Positions 23,058 to 61,970 of a DNA stretch of 64,000 nt are shown in pieces. The translations under genes were made by a program, and so were the position numbers. Below the pieces are notes generated by a model. The model made no database searches and had not been told where the DNA came from. It saw only the letters and a program-made list of their open reading frames with translations. Each line of letters begins with the position of its first letter. The first letter of the stretch is position 1. The stretch lies in contig OZ219787.1 of the NCBI GenBank assembly GCA_964291285.2, forward strand, positions 1,824,001 to 1,888,000. The letters run 5' to 3'. The DNA is from Alphaproteobacteria bacterium (GTDB taxonomy: Bacteria > Pseudomonadota > Alphaproteobacteria > Bin95).

Positions 23058-24536
23058 ATGATGGCGACAGCGGAGAAGTTAGCCTTTTCGTGGTGGTCTG
23101 TGGAGGGCCTTGCGGACCTTGAGCGTCTGCGTGTGGTGCTCGACACGCTTCCCGACGAGAAGGTTGTGGCTGCGCTTGAGGCGGGTCGCGGTCGCGGGCG
23201 GAACGACTATCCGGTACGGGCGATGTGGCGTGCGTTGATCGCGGGGATCGTGTTCCAGCATGCCTCGATGCAGTCGCTGCTGCGTGAGCTGGGCCGCAAC
23301 CCGGCATTGCTTGAGATTTGCGGGTTCGAGGCGCTGCCCTTGCAGGGTGCGCCGGTGGTGGCGCTTTGCGCGGGGCGGGTGGTGAGGTATCCGGCGCCGT
23401 TGCGCTCGACGGTGCCGGGCGCCTGGAACTTCTCGCGGTTCCTGGGGCGCGTGGTGCGCCTTGAGGACGAGCGCGGCCTTGTGTCGGGGATGATCGGGCG
23501 TCTGCGCGCCTCGCTGTTCGAGGAGTTGCCGGACTTCGGTCGCCATCTCGGGTATGACGGCAAGGCGGTGGCGAGCCACTCGACGGGCCGGGTTGCCGGG
23601 GCCAGGGGGCAGACCTCGGACCCCGATGCGGACTGGGGCAGGCACGAGACGGGCGGGGTGAACGCGAAGACCGGCGCGGTGTGGAAGAAGGTGAAGTCGT
23701 GGTTCGGCTACGGGCTGCACCTGATCGCCGACACGGACCACGAGGTTCCTGTGGCCTTCGAGGTGACGCGGGCGTCGGCATCGGAACCCGGGGTGCTGTC
23801 CGGGATGCTGGAGGAGTTGTTCGCCGAGGCGCCGGAGATGGCCGGGCGCTGCGCCGATTTCAGCGCCGACCGCGGTCTCGACAACGCCCGCCTGAAGGCG
23901 CGGTTGTGGGACAGGTGGCATATCCGCCCGCTGATCGACACGCGCCTGATGTGGCGGGTCGAGAAGAAGGAGCCGGGCCATGACCCGGCCCGGCCGATCA
24001 CGCGACCGCTGTTCCCCGGGCGCGCCGACGTCATCGTTCATGACGAACGCGGCCGGGTGTCCTGCGTGTGCCCGCAGACCGGCGAGGTCCGCGCCATGGC
24101 CTTCCAGGGGTTCGAGGTCGGGCGCGGCGTCTGCGGCACGCTCAAATACCGCTGCCCCGCAGCCGCCTTCGGCTTCGAGTGCAAGGGACGCCGGGCCTGC
24201 CATCGGGCGGGTGGGGTGAAGTCCGGCGAATACGGCCGCATCCTGCGCGTCGATCTCGACAGCCATGACCGGCGCCTCTTCACGCCCACGCCCTGGGGCA
24301 GCCCGTCATGGCGGCGCGGATACAACCGGCGCACGGCCATGGAGCGGATCAACGCCCGCCTCGACCGCAGCTTCAACTTCGAGACCCACTACATCCGCGG
24401 TCGCGCGAAGATGAAGACCCGCATCGGGCTGGCCCTGGCGGTCATGATGGCCATGGCGCTTGCACAGGCCCGCGCCGGACGCGTCGCACGCATGCGCTCC
24501 CTGGTCGGCCCGGCGCCATACCTCGATACCGGCTGA
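23058..24536 (+). CDS. IS1182/IS5-like DDE transposase, intact
   Basis: 492 aa; YDGKA, SDPDADWG, WFGYGLHL, ADRGLD, RTAMERIN. Confidence 0.85.
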   Translation: MMATAEKLAFSWWSVEGLADLERLRVVLDTLPDEKVVAALEAGRGRGRNDYPVRAMWRALIAGIVFQHASMQSLLRELGRNPALLEICGFEALPLQGAPVVALCAGRVVRYPAPLRSTVPGAWNFSRFLGRVVRLEDERGLVSGMIGRLRASLFEELPDFGRHLGYDGKAVASHSTGRVAGARGQTSDPDADWGRHETGGVNAKTGAVWKKVKSWFGYGLHLIADTDHEVPVAFEVTRASASEPGVLSGMLEELFAEAPEMAGRCADFSADRGLDNARLKARLWDRWHIRPLIDTRLMWRVEKKEPGHDPARPITRPLFPGRADVIVHDERGRVSCVCPQTGEVRAMAFQGFEVGRGVCGTLKYRCPAAAFGFECKGRRACHRAGGVKSGEYGRILRVDLDSHDRRLFTPTPWGSPSWRRGYNRRTAMERINARLDRSFNFETHYIRGRAKMKTRIGLALAVMMAMALAQARAGRVARMRSLVGPAPYLDTG

Positions 24537-27282: not shown

Positions 27283-29221
27283 GAGGCGTGTGCGCTGTTT
27301 GGAAGTTCTTTCTGAGCAAGGCATTGCGGAGGGTCTGGATTTTTCTTACCCCGTCAGGATGGCTGATTTCCGGGGTTTTTGCGGTTTGGAGGGAAAGGTT
27401 TTGTGGATTTCCACCCCATGGCCGTGCGCGGGCTGGTTTTCGGGCGCGTCGCGTTGAGGCGCGGGACTGAGTAGAAGGTGTCGCCATCGGGCCTGCGGCC
27501 CTTGTTCCATCCACCGGCGCTGGTTGGGAGAACATGATGGCGACAGCGGAGAAGTTAGCCTTTTCGTGGTGGTCTGTGGAGGGCCTTGCGGACCTTGAGC
27601 GTCTGCGTGTGGTGCTCGACACGCTTCCCGACGAGAAGGTTGTGGCTGCGCTTGAGGCGGGTCGCGGTCGCGGGCGGAACGACTATCCGGTACGGGCGAT
27701 GTGGCGTGCGTTGATCGCGGGGATCGTGTTCCAGCATGCCTCGATGCAGTCGCTGCTGCGTGAGCTGGGCCGCAACCCGGCATTGCTTGAGATTTGCGGG
27801 TTCGAGGCGCTGCCCTTGCAGGGTGCGCCGGTGGTGGCGCTTTGCGCGGGGCGGGTGGTGAGGTATCCGGCGCCGTTGCGCTCGACGGTGCCGGGCGCCT
27901 GGAACTTCTCGCGGTTCCTGGGGCGCGTGGTGCGCCTTGAGGACGAGCGCGGCCTTGTGTCGGGGATGATCGGGCGTCTGCGCGCCTCGCTGTTCGAGGA
28001 GTTGCCGGACTTCGGTCGCCATCTCGGGTATGACGGCAAGGCGGTGGCGAGCCACTCGACGGGCCGGGTTGCCGGGGCCAGGGGGCAGACCTCGGACCCC
28101 GATGCGGACTGGGGCAGGCACGAGACGGGCGGGGTGAACGCGAAGACCGGCGCGGTGTGGAAGAAGGTGAAGTCGTGGTTCGGCTACGGGCTGCACCTGA
28201 TCGCCGACACGGACCACGAGGTTCCTGTGGCCTTCGAGGTGACGCGGGCGTCGGCATCGGAACCCGGGGTGCTGTCCGGGATGCTGGAGGAGTTGTTCGC
28301 CGAGGCGCCGGAGATGGCCGGGCGCTGCGCCGATTTCAGCGCCGACCGCGGTCTCGACAACGCCCGCCTGAAGGCGCGGCTGTGGGACAGGTGGCATATC
28401 CGCCCGCTGATCGACACGCGCCTGATGTGGCGGGTCGAGAAGAAGGAGCCGGGCCATGACCCGGCCCGGCCGATCACGCGACCGCTGTTCCCCGGGCGCG
28501 CCGACGTCATCGTTCATGACGAACGCGGCCGGGTGTCCTGCGTGTGCCCGCAGACCGGCGAGGTCCGCGCCATGGCCTTCCAGGGGTTCGAGGTCGGGCG
28601 CGGCGTCTGCGGCACGCTCAAATACCGCTGCCCCGCAGCCGCCTTCGGCTTCGAGTGCAAGGGACGCCGGGCCTGCCATCGGGCGGGTGGGGTGAAGTCC
28701 GGCGAATACGGCCGCATCCTGCGCGTCGACCTCGACAGCCATGACCGGCGTATCTTCACGCCCACGCCCTGGGGCAGCCCGTCATGGCGGCGCGGATACA
28801 ACCGGCGCACCGCCATGGAGCGGATCAACGCCCGCCTCGACCGCAGCTTCAACTTCGAGACCCATTACATCCGCGGACGCGCGAAGATGAAGACCCGCAT
28901 CGGGCTGGCCCTGGCGGTCATGATGGCCATGGCGCTTGCACAGGCCCGCGCCGGACGCGTCGCACGCATGCGCTCCCTGGTCGGCCCGGCGCCATACCTC
29001 GATACCGGCTGACCCCTCAGCCGACTGCCGACAACGCTGACCCAACCCGCCGGACCCCGGCATACGGACAAACGCGACCGAAGGCCGGCGATGCTGCCGG
29101 GCTGGGCCGCTCAAGTTCGAAAAGCAACCGCGGCGACCGCCTCGAACGCCGGAACAAACAACATCAACACCCGGACCCAACGTCCCATCCGACCGGAAAA
29201 ACCCCACAGCGCAAATTTCTC
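27283..29221 (+). mobile_element. 1939-bp IS copy 3, tandem with copy 2
   Basis: Flanked on both sides by ACTGTT (6-bp TSD). Confidence 0.95.
27534..29012 (+). CDS. IS1182/IS5-like DDE transposase, intact
   Basis: 492 aa, nearly identical to 23058-24536. Confidence 0.85.
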   Translation: MMATAEKLAFSWWSVEGLADLERLRVVLDTLPDEKVVAALEAGRGRGRNDYPVRAMWRALIAGIVFQHASMQSLLRELGRNPALLEICGFEALPLQGAPVVALCAGRVVRYPAPLRSTVPGAWNFSRFLGRVVRLEDERGLVSGMIGRLRASLFEELPDFGRHLGYDGKAVASHSTGRVAGARGQTSDPDADWGRHETGGVNAKTGAVWKKVKSWFGYGLHLIADTDHEVPVAFEVTRASASEPGVLSGMLEELFAEAPEMAGRCADFSADRGLDNARLKARLWDRWHIRPLIDTRLMWRVEKKEPGHDPARPITRPLFPGRADVIVHDERGRVSCVCPQTGEVRAMAFQGFEVGRGVCGTLKYRCPAAAFGFECKGRRACHRAGGVKSGEYGRILRVDLDSHDRRIFTPTPWGSPSWRRGYNRRTAMERINARLDRSFNFETHYIRGRAKMKTRIGLALAVMMAMALAQARAGRVARMRSLVGPAPYLDTG

Positions 29222-53904: not shown

Positions 53905-55811
53905 CCCAACTTCAACAGTGACGATTAAAAGTATTCGATAGAACAGGGAGTTACACCGGCATCGCCGGGTGTACCCACTACATTTCGTTGATTTTGGGGA
54001 CGGTCAGGCTTTGTGTTCGCGCCAGTTCGGCGGCAGCGCGATGCCGACGGCCTGGAAGACCTTTCCGACCTGGCCCTCGACATGGGTGCGGGTGGTGATG
54101 CGCTTGCCGTCCTTCTCGATGGTGGCCTCTTGCAGGCGGTCGAGATCGCGGATCAGGTCGTCCCATTCGACGTTGACGTTGGCGGCGGCGCAGCGGTCGG
54201 CCAGTTCCTTCTGGAGGACGAGCGCGAGGAAGGAGCAGAAGACGTGGCCGCGGATCGCGGCGTCGCAGGAGTGGTAGATCGGGCGGGTGCGCAACTGGGC
54301 CTTCGCCCGGCGGAACAGGTCTTCCACCGTGAGCAGCTCCCGGTAGCGGAGCACGGCATTGAGCGGCGTCATGCCGGCGTTGGTGCGCAGCACGAAGATG
54401 CCGTCGAAGCCGGCCTCCTCGGCGAGCTTGCCGGCGTCGATCTCGAACGCCTTGCCCGCGCCCGTGCGGCGCAGATAACGCCGGTAGGCGCTGTTGCCGA
54501 TCAGCGCTTTCTCGCCGTCCGCAAGGCGGCGCTGGAGGCCGTCCACCACGGCCTGCCGGTCGGCGCGGTCCTTCTGTGCCTCCGCCTCGTTGCGGCACAC
54601 GATGTAGCGCGCGCCGCCCACCGTGACTTCCTTCACGAACAGCTGCGTCTCGCCGCGCGGACGCTTGAGGAGCAGCGGCACAAAGGGCTTCGTGTCCTTC
54701 AGCACCACCTCGCGGACCACCTTCGTGCGCCGCTCGCGCGCGCCCAGGATGTAGTCCAGCCCCCGCTCTTCCAGCGCCGCTATCGTCGCCGCCGAGATCA
54801 TCCCCCGGTCCGCCACCACGCACACACGACCGATCCCGAAGCGTGACCGAAGACGGTCCACGATCGGCAGCAGCACCCTGGTGTCGGCCGTGTTGCCCGG
54901 CAGCATCTCCGTGCACACAGGCCGGCCCTCGCCGTCCAGCACCACCGCCAGAACCATCTGGCGCAAGTCCGGGCGATGGTCCTTCGAGTAGCCGTGCGCG
55001 CCCAGCGTCTCGCCGCCCGCGCCGTGGAACGACAGCGTCGTGGTGTCCATGAACACCACAGACAGGTCGGTGAACAGGTCCCGCCTGTGCTCGAACAGAC
55101 GCTCCTCGATCCCGTCCTTCACGCAGCGCGGCGCAAGCGCGCCTTCCGCCGGCGCCTCCAGCTCCTCCCCGAGCCAGGCCATCGCCCGATACAGCTGATG
55201 AAGCCGCAACCCCTCGATCCCCTCGATCGCGTAGTCGGCCATCCACTTCTCGCAGGACCGGTCCGAACCCGACACGAACAGACGGTGCAGAACGCTCACA
55301 AACACCGCCCGCTCGACGGCGAACCCGAAGCCGCGACCGTCCAGAAGCTCCTTCACGACAGCGCCCACGCCCAGCCGATCCCACAGCCGACCGAACAGCA
55401 GCGGACCGCCGACCCGCACGCAGGCCAGCGCGCCCGCCTCCATGTCCTCCAGCACCACGGACCGCTCCGAATGGCGCGCCAGGGACGCGATCAGACGGTC
55501 CAGCTCCCCGCTCGCCTGCAACACGTCCTTGCGGCCGAGCGCGCGGATCGTGCGCTGGCGCACCCGCTTGCCCTCGCGCACGCTCTCCACGAGGTAGAGA
55601 TAGCGGTGGCCCCGGGCGGTCGTTTCGCGCACGAACATGACCGCGTTGTATGTCTTCGATATCGACCAATCAAGAAAACAAGGCCAAATCAGCAAAAATG
55701 TTTCACTACATTTTTCTCAACCCGCGCCAATCATCACCTCACTATCCAATCATTTCAACAACTTGGCGAAACCGCGCCCGGCAAAAATCGACACCGACTG
55801 TTCAAGTTGGG
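53905..55811 (-). mobile_element. IS1634-family element
   Basis: TIR CCCAACTTCAACAGT / CCCAACTTGAACAGT; 5-bp TSD TCAAG. Confidence 0.9.
54004..55638 (-). CDS. IS1634-family transposase
   Basis: YLYLVESVREGKRVRQR, FMDTTT, GYSKDHRPD, VADRGMIS, LRTRPIYH, IRGHVFCSFLAL. Confidence 0.9.
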   Translation of the reverse strand: MFVRETTARGHRYLYLVESVREGKRVRQRTIRALGRKDVLQASGELDRLIASLARHSERSVVLEDMEAGALACVRVGGPLLFGRLWDRLGVGAVVKELLDGRGFGFAVERAVFVSVLHRLFVSGSDRSCEKWMADYAIEGIEGLRLHQLYRAMAWLGEELEAPAEGALAPRCVKDGIEERLFEHRRDLFTDLSVVFMDTTTLSFHGAGGETLGAHGYSKDHRPDLRQMVLAVVLDGEGRPVCTEMLPGNTADTRVLLPIVDRLRSRFGIGRVCVVADRGMISAATIAALEERGLDYILGARERRTKVVREVVLKDTKPFVPLLLKRPRGETQLFVKEVTVGGARYIVCRNEAEAQKDRADRQAVVDGLQRRLADGEKALIGNSAYRRYLRRTGAGKAFEIDAGKLAEEAGFDGIFVLRTNAGMTPLNAVLRYRELLTVEDLFRRAKAQLRTRPIYHSCDAAIRGHVFCSFLALVLQKELADRCAAANVNVEWDDLIRDLDRLQEATIEKDGKRITTRTHVEGQVGKVFQAVGIALPPNWREHKA

Positions 55812-56319
55812 TCAAGCAATGCCGGGTTGCGGCCCAGCTCACGCAGCAGCGACTGCATCGAGGCATGCTGGAACACGATCCCCGCGATCAGAGCCCGCCA
55901 CATCGCCCGCACCGGGTAGTCGTTGCGACCCCGGCCTCGACCCGCCTCAAGCGCAGCCACAACCTTCTCGTCGGGAAGCGTGTCGAGCACCACACGCAGA
56001 CGCTCAAGGTCCGCAAGGCCCTCCACAGACCACCACGAAAAGGCTAACTTCTCCGCTGTCGCCATCACGTTCTCCCAACCAGCGCCGGTGGATGGAACAA
56101 GGGCCGCAGGCCCGATGGCGACACCTTCTACTCAGTCCCGCGCCTCAACGCGACGCGCCCGAAAACCAGCCCGCGCACGGCCATGGGGTGGAAATCCACA
56201 AAACCTTTCCCTTCAAACCGCAAAAACCCCGGAAATCAGCCATCCTGACGGGGTAAGAAAAATCCAGACCCTCCGCAATGCCTTGCTCAGAAAGCACTTC
56301 CAAACAGCGCACACGCCTC

Positions 56320-56630
56320 AGGAGAGGGTCGTGCGGCCGGATGACCTGCTGATGATGAAGCCGGACGAACAGTATGTGGTCGCGGCGTCGAAGGAGTTTC
56401 CGCGGGACGCGATGCGGTTGCGGAATACGCAGTACTGGAAGCACCGCCAGACCGGGGACTTCGCCGACCCGAACCCGTATGTGGAGCGGAAGCTCAAGGC
56501 GGCCGGGCTGTTGAACCGGCGAGAGAGGATGTCGGCGGAGGAGCGCTTCGAGCGGGATTTCGCGAAGGCGAGGGAAGAGGTGCGGGCGCGGCTGGGACCG
56601 GCCGCCTGGAGGCGGCCGGCGCCAGCGTGA
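56320..56630 (+). pseudogene. C-terminal tail of a VirD4/TraG-like coupling protein
   Basis: RVVRPDDLLMMKPDEQYVV...YWK...ADPNPY resembles type IV coupling protein C-termini; 5' part lost at the IS end. Confidence 0.5.
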
Positions 56631-56650
56631 GGCGTAAACCGAGAATGGCT

Positions 56651-57923
56651 GCCGTGGGAATCCACGACCGTTTCCATGGAGCGCCGTGTGGCGCGAGCGA
56701 GTGTTTCCATGGACCCGCGGTTCGCGCCGTGGAACGCAGGACCGGTCCACGTGACGCCGTGGAAATCCACGGCCGTTTCCATGGATCGTCGTGTGGCGCG
56801 GGCGATCGTTTCCATGGACCCGCGGTTCGCGCCGTGGAACGCAGGACCGGTCCACGTGACGCCGTGGAAATCCACGGCCGTTTCCATGGATCGTCGTGTG
56901 GCGCGGGCGATCGTTTCCACGGGCGCATGGTCCGCGACATGGAACGCAGGACCGGTCCACGTGACGCCCTGGGAATCCACGGCCGTTTCCATGGATCGCG
57001 GTGTGGCGCGAGCGAGCGTTTCCATGGATCCGCGGTTCGCGCCGTGGAACGCAGGACCGGTCCACGTGACGCCGTGGAAATCCACGGCCGTTTCCATGGA
57101 TCGTCGTGTGGCGCGAGCGAGCGTTTCCATGGATCCGCGGTTCGCGCCGTGGAACGCAGGACCGGTCCACGTGACGCCCTGGGAATCCACGGGCGTTTCC
57201 ATGGATCGTCGTGTGGCGCGAGCGAACGTTTCCATGGATCCGCGGTTCGCGCCGTGGAACGCAGGACCGGTCCACGTGACGCCCTGGGAATCCACGGCCG
57301 TTTCCATGGATCGCGGTGTGGCGCGAGCGAGCGTTTCCATGGATCCGCGGTTCGCGCCGTGGAACGCAGGACCGGTCCACGTGACGCCGTGGAAATCCAC
57401 GGGCGTTTCCATGGATCGTCGTGTGGCGCGAGCGAGCGTTTCCATGGATCCGCGGTTCGCGCCGTGGAACGCAGGACCGGTCCACGTGACGCCCTGGGAA
57501 TCCACGGGCGTTTCCATGGATCGTCGTGTGGCGCGAGCGAACGTTTCCATGGATCCGCGGTTCGCGCCGTGGAACGCAGGACCGGTCCACGTGACGCCCT
57601 GGGAATCCACGGGCGTTTCCATGGATCGCGGTGTGGCGCGAGCGAGCGTTTCCATGGATCCGCGGTTCGCGCCGTGGAACGCAGGACCGGTCCACGTGAC
57701 GCCGTGGAAATCCACGGGCGTTTCCATGGATCGTCGTGTGGCGCGAGCGATCGTTTCCATGGATCCGCGGTTCGCGCCGTGGAACGCAGGACCGGCCCAC
57801 GTGACGCCGTGGGAATCCACGGCCGTTTCCATGGATCGTCGTGTGGCGCGGGCGAACGTTTCCATGGATCCGCGGTTCGCACCGTGGAACGCAGGACCGG
57901 TCCACGTGACGCCGTGGGAATCC
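56651..57923. repeat. Tandem array of about 12 x 105-bp palindrome-rich units
   Basis: ACCGG(T/C)CCAC recurs at 56741, 56846, 56951 ... 57896 with exact 105-bp period; only point variants between units. Confidence 0.98.
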
Positions 57924-57997
57924 GGAGATGGCTGGAAGGACCGGGTGGACATGAGTCCCTTGGGTGCCGGCGATGGTGGCGGAGCGGAGGAAGTGAG

Positions 57998-59419
57998 ATG
58001 AAGGCGTCCAACAAATTCCTGTTCGACATGAGGTCGGTCGAGGCGATCGAGCCCGGGGAAAAGGAGAGGATCGCCTGGGACGAGGAGGTGGAAGGATTCG
58101 GGCTTCGCGTTCTGCCTTCAGGGACCCGGTCGTGGATCGCGAGCCGCAGGGTGAGGGGCGAGGACGGGAAGGTCCGGCGTCGGCGGGTGACGATCGGCCG
58201 GTTTGAGGATGTGGGGCTCGAGGAGGCGAGGAAGGAGGCGAGGAGAGTGTTGTCCGGTTCAGAGGAGGCGGCTGGTGCGGTGCAGGAGGAAGACGTTGGG
58301 GCGCCGGCGGAAGGAGCGACTGCGGGAATGCCGCAGGACATGAAGGATGCGGGGGAAGGCGCGGTGTGGGTGAATCCCGATGACGACGTGGAGCCGCGGG
58401 AGGCGGAGCATTTCCATCCGGAGACGGGCGAGATCCTGTCAGGATTTGGAGGGGAGGACGACGGCGGTTGGGTAGACGAAGGGCTCGATCTCGATGACTT
58501 GAGCCGGTCGGCGGCCGCAGGGGAGAGAGTTGCGGCTCGTGAAGAGGAGGCAGGACCGGACAGGGTAGCCATGGCGGACGTGCTGGGTGGGGTTCTGCAA
58601 GGGGTTGATGGCGACGGCCGTGAAAGGAGGGAGGGCGGTACCGGGCGAGGCGAAGGACCGGAACTCGGTGCGGACGAGAGCGAGCATGAAGGGATCGTAT
58701 CGGAAGCTGCCGATGTCACGGATGGGGATTCTTCGAAGTCGCCGGTAGGGGACGACGGGTCTGTCCGGTCCGGGCCAGGCGTTGGTGCGGAGATGGTTCG
58801 GAAGGTGGGAGGAGCCGTGGCGACGGTTGCGGGTCAGGCAGCGAGGTTGGGAAGAAAGGCGAGGACGGACCGTGGAAACGGCAGCGAGCCGGAGGATGAG
58901 GCGGCAAGCCGGCCTGCCGAAGTGGCGGACGTGCATGACGCCGGCATCGAGGAGGTGCCGCCGCCGGCGCGTCTTGTGAAGCGGCAGCGGCGCGGCGAGG
59001 GAACGGAGGGGGGAAATCGGGAGGGGATGGAAGTCAGTGACGAGACGGCAGCGGGGGTGGCGCGGAATCTTGACGAAGCGGGGGGCCTGCTGGACCGGAT
59101 CGCGGAGACCGGCGAGAAGCTGATGCCGCTGTTGGAGGACGTGTCGAGCTCGCTGACCCTGTTTTCGAAGGATGTCCGGAACTGGCGTCGTCGCTGGGTA
59201 GGGCCTGTGGTCGTGTTGGTGGTCCTGGCGCCGGTGCTGGTTGGGGCGGGACTGTTGATCCAGAGCCGGTTCCCGCTGCTGCCCAGGGCGGACCCGACAG
59301 GCGGGTGGAAGGACCATGTCTGGGAGCAGTACGGGCCCGCCCTCGTGGAATGCTACCGGCGCGCGCAGGCGACCGAAGCGGGGCGCACGGACTGCGCGGT
59401 GGAGGTGCGGGCCAGGTAA
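57998..59419 (+). CDS. Integrase arm-type DNA-binding domain (DUF4102-like) protein with acidic linker and C-terminal TM helix
   Basis: WDEEVEGFGLRVLPSGTRSW...RRVTIGRF...LEEARKEARR; no tyrosine-recombinase catalytic domain; TM WVGPVVVLVVLAPVLVGAGLLI; GGAGG RBS. Confidence 0.75.
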   Translation: MKASNKFLFDMRSVEAIEPGEKERIAWDEEVEGFGLRVLPSGTRSWIASRRVRGEDGKVRRRRVTIGRFEDVGLEEARKEARRVLSGSEEAAGAVQEEDVGAPAEGATAGMPQDMKDAGEGAVWVNPDDDVEPREAEHFHPETGEILSGFGGEDDGGWVDEGLDLDDLSRSAAAGERVAAREEEAGPDRVAMADVLGGVLQGVDGDGRERREGGTGRGEGPELGADESEHEGIVSEAADVTDGDSSKSPVGDDGSVRSGPGVGAEMVRKVGGAVATVAGQAARLGRKARTDRGNGSEPEDEAASRPAEVADVHDAGIEEVPPPARLVKRQRRGEGTEGGNREGMEVSDETAAGVARNLDEAGGLLDRIAETGEKLMPLLEDVSSSLTLFSKDVRNWRRRWVGPVVVLVVLAPVLVGAGLLIQSRFPLLPRADPTGGWKDHVWEQYGPALVECYRRAQATEAGRTDCAVEVRAR

Positions 59420-59438
59420 GGCCCGCGGAGGTTGGCGC

Positions 59439-60464
59439 ATGTACAGCGACGCCGAGATCGATGCGGCAGTCCGGGACGGCGCGCTCGCGCCGGAGGCCGC
59501 ACTTGCGTTCCGTGCGCATGTGGCCCGGGCGCGCGCGGGGCCGGTCGGCGGCGAGGAGCACGTCCGCCTCGTGACCGGCTTCAACGACATCTTCACGGGG
59601 ACCGCCGCGGCGCTGGCGCTGGCCGGCCTGGCCTGGCTCGCCGGCAGCCTGCATGCCGCCCTCGGCGGCGCGGCGGTGGCGCTCGCCTCATGGGCGCTGG
59701 CGGAGTATTTCACCCGCCGCCGGCGCATGGCGTTCCCCTCCCTGCTGCTGCTGGCGGGGTTCGCCGGCGGCGTCTTCCAGGCCGCGTTCGAGGCCGCCGG
59801 CGCGGCCGGGCTCGATGCCGCGGACCCGGCCGCCGCCCTGGCGGGCGCCTGCGCGGCGCTGGCGGCCGGCCTGCACTGGCGGCGCTTCCGGGTGCCGGCG
59901 ACGGTGGCGGCCGGCGCGGGCGCGCTGGTCGCGGTTGCACTGGCCCTGACCGCCGCGGCCGTCCCGGAGGCCCATGCGGAGGCGGCGGTGCTCGCGGCCA
60001 TGTTCCTCGCCGGCGCCGGGGTGTTCGCCCTTGCCATGCGCCGGGACCTCTCCGACCGCGAGCGCGCCACCCGCAGGGCCGATACCGCGTTCTGGCTCCA
60101 CCTGCTGGCCGCGCCGCTCATCGTCCACCCGGCGTTCTCGCTCCTCGGCGAGGGCGGCGGCGCGCCCGGGCCGACCGCCGCGGTCGCCCTGCTCTACGCG
60201 CTGCTGGCCGTCATCGCGCTGGCGGTGGACCGGCGCTCGCTGCTGTTCGCGGCGCTCGCCTACCTGCTGACCGCGATCTACGACCTCACCCGGGGGGTGG
60301 AGTCCGTCGGGTCCCGCCTCGCGCTCGCCATCCTGGTCGCGGGCGCCGCGCTGCTGCTGCTCTCCGCCTTCTGGCGCCGCGCCCGCAGCGCCGTGCTGCG
60401 CGCCCTGCCGGCCTCATGGCAGGCCGCGTTGCCCGCATCGGCCCCGCCAGCACCGGCGCCGTGA
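59439..60464 (+). CDS. Conserved hypothetical polytopic membrane protein
   Basis: MYSDAEIDAAV..GAL, EEHVRLVTGFNDIF, AFWLHLLAAPLIVHP, ALAVDRR; many TM segments; strong GC3 bias. Confidence 0.75.
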   Translation: MYSDAEIDAAVRDGALAPEAALAFRAHVARARAGPVGGEEHVRLVTGFNDIFTGTAAALALAGLAWLAGSLHAALGGAAVALASWALAEYFTRRRRMAFPSLLLLAGFAGGVFQAAFEAAGAAGLDAADPAAALAGACAALAAGLHWRRFRVPATVAAGAGALVAVALALTAAAVPEAHAEAAVLAAMFLAGAGVFALAMRRDLSDRERATRRADTAFWLHLLAAPLIVHPAFSLLGEGGGAPGPTAAVALLYALLAVIALAVDRRSLLFAALAYLLTAIYDLTRGVESVGSRLALAILVAGAALLLLSAFWRRARSAVLRALPASWQAALPASAPPAPAP

Positions 60465-60537
60465 CACGCCCGGACGGCCAGGAACCCGGAGCGGAAGGAA
60501 AGCCCCCGGGGCGCGAACCGGCCCGGAAGGAGAGACG

Positions 60538-60723
60538 ATGACCGGAAAACCGACAATGACAGCGACAGACTCCCGGCGCGCCGCCTGCGCCTTCGAGACG
60601 CTGAACGACATCGCCAGGCACTCAGGCGACAAGGGCCTGCTGATCGACATGGAACGCTTCGCGCTTGAGCTGTGCGAGACGCTGAAAACCTCGCTGCGGC
60701 TCATGCCTGGCAACGACTGCTGA
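60538..60723 (+). CDS. Small hypothetical protein
   Basis: 61 aa; AAGGAG RBS; coding-like codon use. Confidence 0.4.
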   Translation: MTGKPTMTATDSRRAACAFETLNDIARHSGDKGLLIDMERFALELCETLKTSLRLMPGNDC

Positions 60724-60783
60724 AACCGGAAGGGACCGGGCGGCTGACGCCGACCGCGCCAGGAGGAACGCCTGAAATGTGGA

Positions 60784-61437
60784 TCAGGACCGACAGGCGT
60801 CAGCGGAAGGTTTGTACGCAGGATTACTCCAGGCCCTTCCGGACCGGTTTCGTTTGACGATGTCGGCGACGGTATTTTTGGAGATCTGGAGGTCTCTGGC
60901 TATCCACCGGTAGCTCCGCCCGTCTTCGACGGCCTTGAGGACGGCGGGGGCGAGGCGGTCGGACTTGGGTCTCTGGCCGGGCTGGCGCCCGAGCTTTTTT
61001 CCACGGGCTCTGGCGGCGGCGAGTCCGGACTTGACGCGTTCGGAGATCAGGTCGCGTTCGAACTGGGCGATTCCGGCCAGCAGCGTGGCCATCATGCGCC
61101 CGTGGGGCGTATCGAGTTCGAAGGTCATGCCGTTCATGGCGACGAGGGAGACGTTCCATCCGGCGAGGCGGTGCAGGGTTTCGAGGAGGTCCTGCGTCGA
61201 GCGGCCCCATCGGGAGAGTTCGGTGACGAGCACGGCGTCGATCGAGCGGGCCTGGGCGAGGGCGATCACGCGGTTTCGCTCGCGCCGTGCGTTTCGGGTT
61301 CCGGAGGCGGTCTCGAGGAAGGTTCCGGCGACGTCGAACCCGGCGCGTCCCGCGAACGCCTCCAGGTCGCGGACCTGCCGTTCGCAGGACTGGTCGGCGG
61401 TCGAGACCCGTGCGTAGATGGCGGCGTTGCGTCCCAT
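60784..61437 (-). CDS. Serine recombinase (resolvase/invertase)
   Basis: YARVSTADQ, VTELSRWGRS, AQFERDLISERVKSGLAAARARG..LGR, C-terminal HTH. Confidence 0.95.
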   Translation of the reverse strand: MGRNAAIYARVSTADQSCERQVRDLEAFAGRAGFDVAGTFLETASGTRNARRERNRVIALAQARSIDAVLVTELSRWGRSTQDLLETLHRLAGWNVSLVAMNGMTFELDTPHGRMMATLLAGIAQFERDLISERVKSGLAAARARGKKLGRQPGQRPKSDRLAPAVLKAVEDGRSYRWIARDLQISKNTVADIVKRNRSGRAWSNPAYKPSADACRS

Positions 61438-61631: not shown

Positions 61632-61970
61632 TCAGGACGGGCAAGAGTTCGGGTTCGGGCCGAAGTGGAACCCCCGGACGCGCGGGAAGGCGTCCGCGTA
61701 ATCCCAGGTCTCGTCTTCCGTGCCCAGACAGGCGACCAGGATGGACGAGCCGTCCTTCCAGGTGACGGTGAGGCTGTTCGGGTTCGAGGAGCCGGTGTAG
61801 TCGACGACGCGGCTGGCCGGGGCCAGGGCGATACGGTGTTCGTCCTCGTCGACCATCCAGCGCTTTTCGACGTCTTCCCAGAATGAGTCCTCGGCACCGT
61901 AGCGTGCGACGAAGCGGTCGGCGGCAGGGGCGTTTGCGGTAACGGCAGGTGGCGGGTCGCCGGCGCTCAT
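61632..61970 (-). CDS. Hypothetical protein
   Basis: 112 aa; ATG overlaps the upstream stop (ATGA); coding-like codon use. Confidence 0.55.
   Translation of the reverse strand: MSAGDPPPAVTANAPAADRFVARYGAEDSFWEDVEKRWMVDEDEHRIALAPASRVVDYTGSSNPNSLTVTWKDGSSILVACLGTEDETWDYADAFPRVRGFHFGPNPNSCPS

Follow-up and report, generated by a model that had tools for sequence, protein, structure and literature searches.

We analysed a window of 64,000 nucleotides (nt) from an alphaproteobacterial genome of 6.1 Mb (contig OZ219787.1, positions 1,824,001 to 1,888,000; the genome is called G000 below), in which a long tandem array lies directly upstream of a gene for a predicted membrane protein with an integrase arm-type DNA-binding domain. 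The array (56651..57923, + strand) is reported by Tandem Repeats Finder (TRF) as 12.1 copies of a 105-bp unit (94% matches, score 2217), and it is a candidate cis-acting binding site for the arm domain. It begins 20 nt past the stop codon of the remnant of a gene for a type IV coupling protein (T4CP) and occupies the whole intergenic space between that remnant and the next gene. A spacer of 74 nt (57924..57997, +), in which a Shine-Dalgarno-like GGAGG stands ahead of the ATG, leads to an open reading frame (ORF) of 473 amino acids (aa) at 57998-59419 (+), and the ATG is 75 bp beyond the last array base. From its N-terminus the encoded protein, termed here the arm-TM protein, consists of the arm domain, an acidic disordered linker, a helical segment, a single transmembrane (TM) helix and a short tail with two cysteines, and it lacks a catalytic recombinase domain. 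This anatomy had been described in a first-pass annotation made from the sequence and it proved correct throughout. Two further copies of the module, identical to each other, are found in the same genome on contigs C2 and C5; the contigs that carry the copies are 0.45-2.2 Mb long.

When the 12 units of the array were aligned in register we observed two copies of GTTTCCATGGA, one copy of AATCCACGG and an invariant CCGTGGAACGCAGGACCGGTCCACGTGAC per unit, and an invariant 29-nt run that spans CCGTGGAAC to CACGTGAC. The variable columns repeat every three units (~315 bp) across 56966-57910, which indicates recent amplification of a three-unit block; such a higher-order pattern is a sign of recent unequal exchange. 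In the whole genome 23 of the 25 occurrences of GTTTCCATGGA and all occurrences (11/11) of two 17-mers of the array fall inside it, and this restriction argues for a cis site rather than a dispersed regulon. The array is non-coding. Its GC content by codon position in the frame of the gene is 0.73/0.64/0.62, and GC at the third position (GC3) stays below 0.8 in every frame (0.62-0.73 across the array frames) compared with 0.84-0.94 in the flanking genes. The idea of a coding repeat (35 codons make up 105 bp, and the reading frame stays open from 56627 on) was ruled out by this missing GC3 signal; it also fails on the same Met start found in homologues and on the 52- and 157-bp periods of related arrays, which are not divisible by three. 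As a single strand, one unit folds better than its shuffled versions (z -3.4; 1 of 200 shuffles was equally good). A scan of 55800-60600 against Rfam at E <= 1 gave no family in the array and only two chance-level matches outside it, and no sigma-70-like promoter or intrinsic terminator was detected in 56200-58200.

The arm-type domain (residues 1-90; 57998..58267, +) was recognized by Pfam, by structure prediction, by Foldseek and by phmmer. PF13356 (Arm-DNA-bind_3) matches residues 14-85 with an E-value of 1.5e-10 and 41.4 bits against a cut-off of 27, and it is the sole Pfam match of the protein; the C2 paralogue and the homologue at locus L001 likewise pass this cut-off. An AlphaFold model of the 473-aa protein, built on an alignment of ten family members, has a per-residue confidence (pLDDT) of 87-94 over residues 10-90 and ~80 in the tail, and is confident in those two regions only. 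Foldseek ranked three P4-like integrase arm domains highest in the PDB (3ju0, 3jtz and 3rmp; E 9e-5 to 4e-4, target TM-score 0.67-0.82, root-mean-square deviation 1.5-2.1 A), and a phmmer comparison of the arm domain with 3jtz gave an E-value of 0.024. Residues invariant in the family alignment include W27, D28, E29, F34, G35, R37, G42, W46 and R63. The protein thus shares its arm fold and its Pfam family with the P4-like tyrosine integrases, and differs from them in having the linker, helix, TM segment and tail in place of core-binding and catalytic domains: no recombinase catalytic domain (Phage_integrase, R-H-R-Y) and no Pfam or NCBIfam match was found past residue 85. The shared domain is what speaks for an integrase decoy or competitor, the alternative offered by the first-pass annotation; in such a scheme the array would soak up integrase arms, or the protein would compete for arm sites, and excision would be controlled in this way. 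The 57 arm-domain matches in the genome point in the same direction. However, none of the three copies has an integrase beside it, identity to the closest integrase arm domains is only 42-47%, the array motifs are practically restricted to the array and are not found at other sites that an attachment (att) region could use, and a membrane anchor would have no obvious role. A decoy is therefore very improbable.

The arm domain is followed by the acidic linker (residues 91-340; 58268..59017, +), with a net charge of -33 and pLDDT below 50; in the AlphaFold model the predicted disorder reaches over residues 91-346. The linker cannot be aligned within the family except for one motif, ETGE preceded by a nearly invariant P (residues 141-145; 58418-58432), which is conserved in 14 of 14 aligned family members and occurs twice in P0025, a relative that lacks the arm domain. 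It is a candidate short docking motif for a partner. The next region (residues 341-398; 59018..59191, +) is a conserved, coiled-coil-like helical segment ending in an Arg cluster; it corresponds to helix 348-387 of the model, is kept in family alignments A1, A2 and A5, and is modelled as helix 19-69 in a short homologue. The single TM helix (residues 399-422; 59192..59263, +) coincides with a hydropathy maximum of 2.76 at residues 403-421 and with model helix 393-424. From the RRRW that precedes it, and by the positive-inside rule only, we infer an N-in, C-out orientation. The 51-residue tail (59264..59419 with the stop codon, +), defined by alignments and predicted structure, is probably periplasmic. 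It follows the pattern D-P-x-x-G-W-x-x-H-x-W-x-x-Y-G ... C ... C, its invariant residues are D432, P433, G436, W437, H440, W442, Y445, G446, C452 and C466, and the two cysteines are invariant in 10 of 10 family members. In the model of the short homologue the tail has a pLDDT of 88-95.

In ToxR, CadC and TcpP a DNA-binding domain in the cytoplasm is joined through a linker and one TM helix to a small periplasmic part with two cysteines. The arm-TM protein may have the same topology, and it could accordingly be read as a ToxR-like membrane-bound one-component regulator that would perceive an envelope or mating signal through its periplasmic two-Cys tail and regulate transcription by binding of the arm domain to the array; as a variant, dense binding on the array could block read-through, autoregulate the gene or set downstream expression. 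Such a regulator would suit an array that fills the intergenic space of an apparent single operon in which neither a terminator nor a sigma-70-like promoter was detected, and StbA of plasmid R388 also has a regulatory role, exerted through repeats at its own promoter (PMC3098194). Twelve 105-bp units with several candidate sites each are, however, far beyond what a promoter needs, and the array motifs occur at practically no other locus of the genome. The domain is of the arm type and not an OmpR/PhoB-type winged helix, PF13356 being the only Pfam match; the gene belongs to a conjugation cluster and the proposed target is a large tandem array. The tail, moreover, has only ~50 residues and is also present in homologues without a DNA-binding domain. 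Taken together, we regard a ToxR-like regulator as unlikely.

The first-pass annotation had proposed looking for tandem arrays upstream of other genes of this kind. We examined 13 arm-bearing loci (window, C2, C5, L001-L005 and L021-L025), which collapse to eight lineages when duplicates are joined (C2 = C5, L004 = L005, L021 = L022, and L024 = L025 together with L023, whose arm is identical), and 14 control loci with arm-lacking homologues (L006, L037, L102-L105, L107, L108 and L110-L115). Loci that match the arm domain only (L007-L010, and L026-L100 except L037), which are ordinary integrase-like genes, were left out of the count. Clear TRF arrays were found upstream of 10 of the 13 arm-bearing genes, or in six of the eight lineages; the remaining three (L003-L005) have a ~220-bp patch of degenerate repeats only. 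The clear arrays have periods of 105, 48, 52, 157 or 42 bp and 4.6 to 16.6 copies, and they end ~40-170 nt before the start codon. The identical C2 and C5 copies have a 48-bp array of 8.2 copies ~130 nt upstream; L001 and L002 have 52-bp arrays (9.2 and 11.7 copies), L021/L022 a 157-bp array (4.6 copies), L023 a 42-bp array of at least 7.1 copies that runs into the contig end, and L024/L025 an array of 16.6 copies. An adjacent array was found at none of the 14 arm-lacking loci, for which the flanks were mostly only 1.5 kb and which come from a handful of genomes and are not independent; the closest repeats there are 29-bp x 2 at ~1.2 kb (L115) and 18-bp x 3 at ~6 kb (L006). Since 8 of these 14 loci directly follow a T4CP gene, yet have no array, the array goes with the arm domain and not with the T4CP. 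Within G000 itself, a census with thresholds of period >= 30, >= 3 copies and score >= 200 gave ~30 distinct arrays, three of which sit ~75-140 bp upstream of the three arm-TM paralogues (3/3). We concluded that the array-protein pairing is conserved and specific to the arm-carrying homologues.

This pattern also bears on an explanation in which the C-terminal part of the protein is a secretion accessory or an entry-exclusion-type inner-membrane protein and the array is not bound by the arm domain at all, being a structured RNA, single-stranded DNA or a recombination-prone spacer. The position of the arm-TM gene, which in intact copies comes just after the DotA/TraY and T4CP genes (see below), resembles that of exclusion genes on IncI plasmids. 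The single-strand folding of one unit agrees with such an explanation, and with read-through of the operon the array would be part of the transcript. It leaves unexplained why arrays are found only with the arm domain (10/13 plus three degenerate cases vs 0/14); no Rfam family was detected in the array, and the arm domain is clearly constrained, with many invariant residues. We judge this explanation as a whole improbable.

Next, we compared the arrays with one another. Autocorrelation lags near 52, 105 and 157 bp are common to the window, L001, L002, L021 and L004. The core AATCCACGG, followed after 3-5 nt by (T/C)CCATGG, is shared by the window, L001 and L002, and partly by L021, always in one orientation, and the proteins at the loci sharing this core are only 38-43% identical. 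A second motif group, with CCGGTCCC-type motifs, is formed by L003/L004 and L023/L024, and the C2/C5 array is different again. The arm domains are 77% identical between L001 and L002, 64-65% between L003/L004 and L023/L024, and 47-55% between C2 and all others, so that the array motif groups track arm-domain identity. Between the window and C2, the T4CP tail is 89.5% identical, the block 59261-60797 98% and the arm region 72%, and the arrays cannot be aligned. In this comparison the array and the arm domain behave as one exchangeable or fast-diverging cassette, in the manner of specificity determinants. The block 59261-60797, which is 98% identical to C5 as well, takes in the final 160 nt of the arm-TM gene, the following membrane-protein gene and the spacer to a resolvase gene, while the remainder of the arm-TM gene is only 44-55% identical at the protein level to the C2/C5 copies; such a block beside a diverged gene remainder makes recent gene conversion between co-resident elements likely. 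With regard to spacing, the periods of 105, 52, 157 and 42 (21) bp are within ~0.05 turn of whole multiples of the 10.5-bp helical repeat, and the 48-bp array of C2/C5 is not in step with it. The array sites may therefore be phased on one face of the DNA, which is only a hint given the small sample of related arrays.

A repeat array directly upstream of the gene of its presumed binder is also the classic layout of a centromere, and co-resident paralogues with unrelated arrays, diverged arms and near-identical flanks are what one expects of specificity or incompatibility determinants. The module could on this basis serve segregation or maintenance without an NTPase: the centromere-like array would be held by the anchored reader, which fixes the copies to the growing envelope for both daughters. 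StbA gives a precedent for segregation without a partner NTPase (bioRxiv 10.1101/2022.04.29.490116). Against this, the copies lie on contigs of 0.45-2.2 Mb, so that the one in the window, at least, is passed on as part of a large replicon and has no need of partition; the module keeps company with T4CP and relaxase genes and not with replication genes, and arm-lacking homologues occupy the same gene position. No ParA-, ParM- or TubZ-type NTPase was found among the scanned neighbours, that is, the listed ORFs of the window, L001 and the C2 copy. We consider a segregation device distinctly unlikely.

A search of a collection of 5.8 billion proteins returned nine full-length homologues of the arm-TM protein (35-66% identity, 96-100% coverage); the C2 paralogue was matched in addition, with 28% covered in the best local alignment. 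The ORF is thus no chance fusion of an integrase fragment, a possibility that the first-pass annotation had raised, but a member of a conserved family. An HMMER search added a few more relatives, together with many proteins, 90-370 aa long, whose similarity is limited to the C-terminal module (helix, TM segment and tail). Family proteins range from 278 to 566 aa and their linkers from ~20 to ~350 residues, and the arm domain, the linker ETGE, the helical segment and the tail are conserved across alignments. The family is rare: the C-terminal module is present in 5 of 401 sampled genomes of the class, and ~ten arm-bearing proteins were found in the large protein collections. A collection of plasmids gave no DNA match to 55900-60600, just arm-domain matches at integrase-like places in the protein search (seven records), and no match to the arm-lacking short homologue P0058.

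The C-terminal module could not be assigned to a family. A Pfam scan of 44 members at E <= 1 gave no assignment (among the best 25 of 52 weakly matching families), NCBIfam gave no match, a profile search of the PDB found only a designed helical protein (E 0.019), and Foldseek with the model of a 158-aa homologue (mean pLDDT 78.9) found 0 PDB matches. Language-model similarity of residues 340-473 scored 0.86 for MobB (PF17511, Mobilization_B) and 0.85 for DUF6118 (PF19613); both scores are under the 0.9 level and give leads only. Both families fail by hidden Markov model, being absent among the best 25 of the 52 families, and neither has a match anywhere in the genome at E <= 1. MobB of R1162/RSF1010 is a membrane-associated relaxosome accessory. 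The genes of the arm-lacking homologues lie directly downstream of a T4CP gene at 8 of the 14 control loci and directly upstream of a TrwC-type relaxase gene at 3 of 14, and because of these positions the module is read as an accessory of DNA-transfer (Dtr) functions. One genome (G006) has six arm-lacking homologues, four of them beside T4CP genes. In G000 two arm-lacking paralogues of ~340-370 aa with a coiled-coil N-terminal part (G000:C1:432777-434114 and G000:C4:312471-312845) are encoded ~50 nt upstream of genes for TrwC relaxases of 1729 aa and downstream of a truncated TrwC-like ORF.

The conjugation context proposed for the locus was borne out. Operon membership was tested on the intact C2 copy. 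The intact block is co-directional and encodes, in order, a 1014-aa protein with a weak VirB4-like P-loop match, proteins of 174 and 380 aa, a 757-aa DotA/TraY protein (TIGR04346, E 6e-67, 226.7 bits against a cut-off of 100) and the T4CP, followed by the array and the arm-TM gene as the last gene. The intact T4CP homologues match PF02534 with E-values of 5e-42 to 8e-44 (8e-44 for the C2 copy). A TrwC-type relaxase gene (G000:C3:1896544-1897359) is located ~8.5 kb past the window end and ~14 kb from the array, in a convergent block with a resolvase, a 112-aa ORF and a YAcAr/SLOG protein; the relaxase families PF03432, PF03389 and PF07514 have no match in the genome. These gene families mark a transfer cluster of Dot/Icm-like (type IVB, IncI-like) kind, and its relaxase is of the TrwC type. 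The genome is extremely rich in mobile elements, and besides the arm-domain matches mentioned above it contains 21 TrwC relaxase matches and four DotA/TraY genes. Of the 13 arm-bearing loci, eight have a T4CP gene as the direct upstream neighbour; in three there is none within 8 kb, and for the other two the contig ends too early to decide.

In the window the arm-TM gene was said to lie between a VirD4-like tail and a gene for a polytopic membrane protein. Both neighbours were found, and the first of them needs a correction, as it is the remnant of a T4CP gene cut by an insertion sequence (IS). The remnant (56320..56630, +) encodes residues ~578-678 of a VirD4/TraG-like T4CP: by tblastn with the intact T4CP of C2, residues 578-675 align at 56319-56627 with 74% identity, and similarity to the C2 gene has its boundary at 56319/56320. 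The IS element that truncates the gene (54004..56319, -), with a transposase at 54004-55695 (PF01609, E 9e-15), is not part of the module and sets its left edge; the stretch 55802-56325 is present in at least 25 copies in the genome. The head of the T4CP (residues 1-582; G000:C2:257040-258785) is on another contig than the window, is 89% identical to the C2 copy, and adjoins a DotA gene (98.5% identical) and a copy of an IS. Both break points in the T4CP share a AAGGAGAG-like stretch. These features would fit a single IS insertion with target duplication and a later IS-mediated rearrangement between replicons. If the assembly is correct, the window copy is separated from its secretion genes.

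Based on the pairing of arrays with arm domains, we think it probable that the arm domain binds the array motifs. What such binding would be for is less certain. Our preferred reading, held tentatively and at slightly less than even chances, is that arm domains load on the array and that the protein, as an accessory of the T4CP and relaxosome, thereby tethers the element to the inner membrane. The array and the gene would form a two-part module of a conjugative element with a type IVB cluster, a VirD4-type T4CP and a TrwC-type relaxase. The protein would span the inner membrane, its N-terminus being cytoplasmic and its two-Cys tail exposed to the periplasm, where the cysteine pair could form a disulfide, and the arm domain would reach out on the long acidic flexible linker. 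Many copies of the arm domain would bind the short repeated motifs in the array upstream of their own gene and turn the array into a multivalent, membrane-attached patch of element DNA. The C-terminal module would be the Dtr accessory proper; the addition of arm and array would keep the element DNA beside the coupling protein and favour its hand-over to the secretion channel. The module would then be a membrane-anchored functional analogue of accessories of the TraM/TrwA type or of the positioning exerted by StbA and its stbDRs repeats. A bolder form of this proposal, which is possible but doubtful, takes the module as a "membrane centromere", an NTPase-free docking device in which dozens of single-pass proteins pin the element by its phased array beside the type IVB T4CP, and in which array and arm co-diversify as a specificity cassette that avoids cross-talk between co-resident elements.

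Several observations weigh against tethering for transfer. Many of the repeated array motifs (TCCATGGA, GGACCGGTCC, CACGTG) are palindromic, unlike the classic direct-repeat pattern of arm sites, and arrays of 0.3-1.3 kb far exceed the known sites of accessory proteins. The T4CP gene is truncated in the window and the secretion genes are on another contig, so any role of this copy in transfer would have to be exerted in trans or have been lost. The relaxase gene is on the opposite strand ~14 kb away and the origin of transfer (oriT) was not located (no nic-site search was made); with a relaxase so placed and the oriT unlocated, the array is not obviously part of the relaxosome site. Loci L003-L005 have degenerate repeats only and no T4CP gene upstream. 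The arm-lacking homologues show that the core role of the family does not need DNA binding. Simple linkage can explain part of the co-variation of array and arm, although the contrast between the window and C2 is harder to ascribe to linkage than the motif grouping does. A complex prediction with the full T4CP and residues 155-474 of the C2 paralogue, a fragment without the PETGE motif, gave a score of 0.00 and counts neither for nor against binding.

A cis-acting repeat array with a cognate DNA-binding protein of a mobile element is a known kind of system, and three examples can be compared here. TraM of F-like plasmids bridges the oriT to TraD, and it resembles the arm-TM protein, as does TrwA of R388 with TrwB, in being an element-encoded binder of several sites near its own gene that links DNA to the T4CP (PMC3159463; PMC12857230), binding being a prediction in our case. 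TraM and TrwA are small soluble ribbon-helix-helix tetramers with few sites inside the oriT, whereas here an arm fold is joined by an acidic linker of ~250 aa to a TM anchor in the same protein and faces an array of 0.3-1.3 kb; no sequence relationship was found. In R388, StbA and its partner StbB set the closeness of the plasmid to the polar membrane, which correlates with transfer, and StbA recognizes direct 9-bp repeats, arranged as two sets of five, that precede its own gene beside the mobility genes, a layout like ours. The R388 system determines where in the cell the plasmid lies and balances stability against transfer (PMC3098194). StbA differs in that it is a soluble helix-turn-helix protein without a membrane anchor that keeps plasmids on the nucleoid and lowers transfer, and the stbDRs repeats are 11-bp spaced and ~110 bp overall. 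TraB of Streptomyces plasmids is a membrane-associated transfer protein that recognizes direct 8-bp repeats in the cis-acting clt locus near its gene (PMC4447253). Its recognition domain is within an FtsK-like motor that moves double-stranded DNA, whereas in our case motor (the T4CP) and repeat reader are encoded by different genes and a relaxase is present. What is new is that an arm domain occurs in a protein other than a recombinase, that this protein has a membrane anchor of its own, and that a very large array lies between the T4CP gene and the gene of its reader. The first-pass annotation knew of no described system with this layout, and we found none in the full-text literature either (supplementary files could hold annotations).

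The path by which conjugative DNA reaches the membrane-embedded secretion channel is poorly understood, and the known answers are soluble accessories such as TraM and TrwA and the positioning by StbA/StbB. If the tethering proposal is true, a membrane-anchored reader with a large array dedicated to it would answer in a direct physical way how the channel is found, and we could find no earlier case of an integrase arm domain used outside recombination. The compact orthogonal pair of array and reader might also be usable for attaching DNA to membranes as an experimental tool. The rarity of the family limits its general importance unless the mechanism is more widespread in other guises.

Downstream of the arm-TM gene lies the polytopic membrane-protein gene (59439..60464, or from 59316, +), which encodes a multi-helix protein without a family match; it is missing from L001 and L002 and is thus probably cargo and not part of the core module. 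It is followed by three conserved neighbours on the - strand, namely a serine resolvase gene (60784-61437), a 112-aa ORF (61632-61970) and a gene for a large YAcAr/SLOG-domain protein (61967 to beyond 64000). The YAcAr/SLOG protein is conserved beside the module in the window, C2/C5, L001 and L037, is also found at L019:974-5728, and has 1584 aa in the C2 copy. In the upstream remainder of the window, IS transposases are mixed with ordinary genes (AcrB, MatE, penicillin amidase). The ORFs 23058-24536 and 27534-29012 both encode 492 aa and have identical GC profiles, and the first contains DUF772 and DDE_Tnp_1; equal length, GC profile and transposase domains mark them as two copies of one IS ~4.5 kb apart. 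Outside the window, G000:C3:1392390-1393577 has a 61-bp period in which a conserved repeat of ~29 nt alternates with variable stretches of ~32 nt, giving it a CRISPR-like look.

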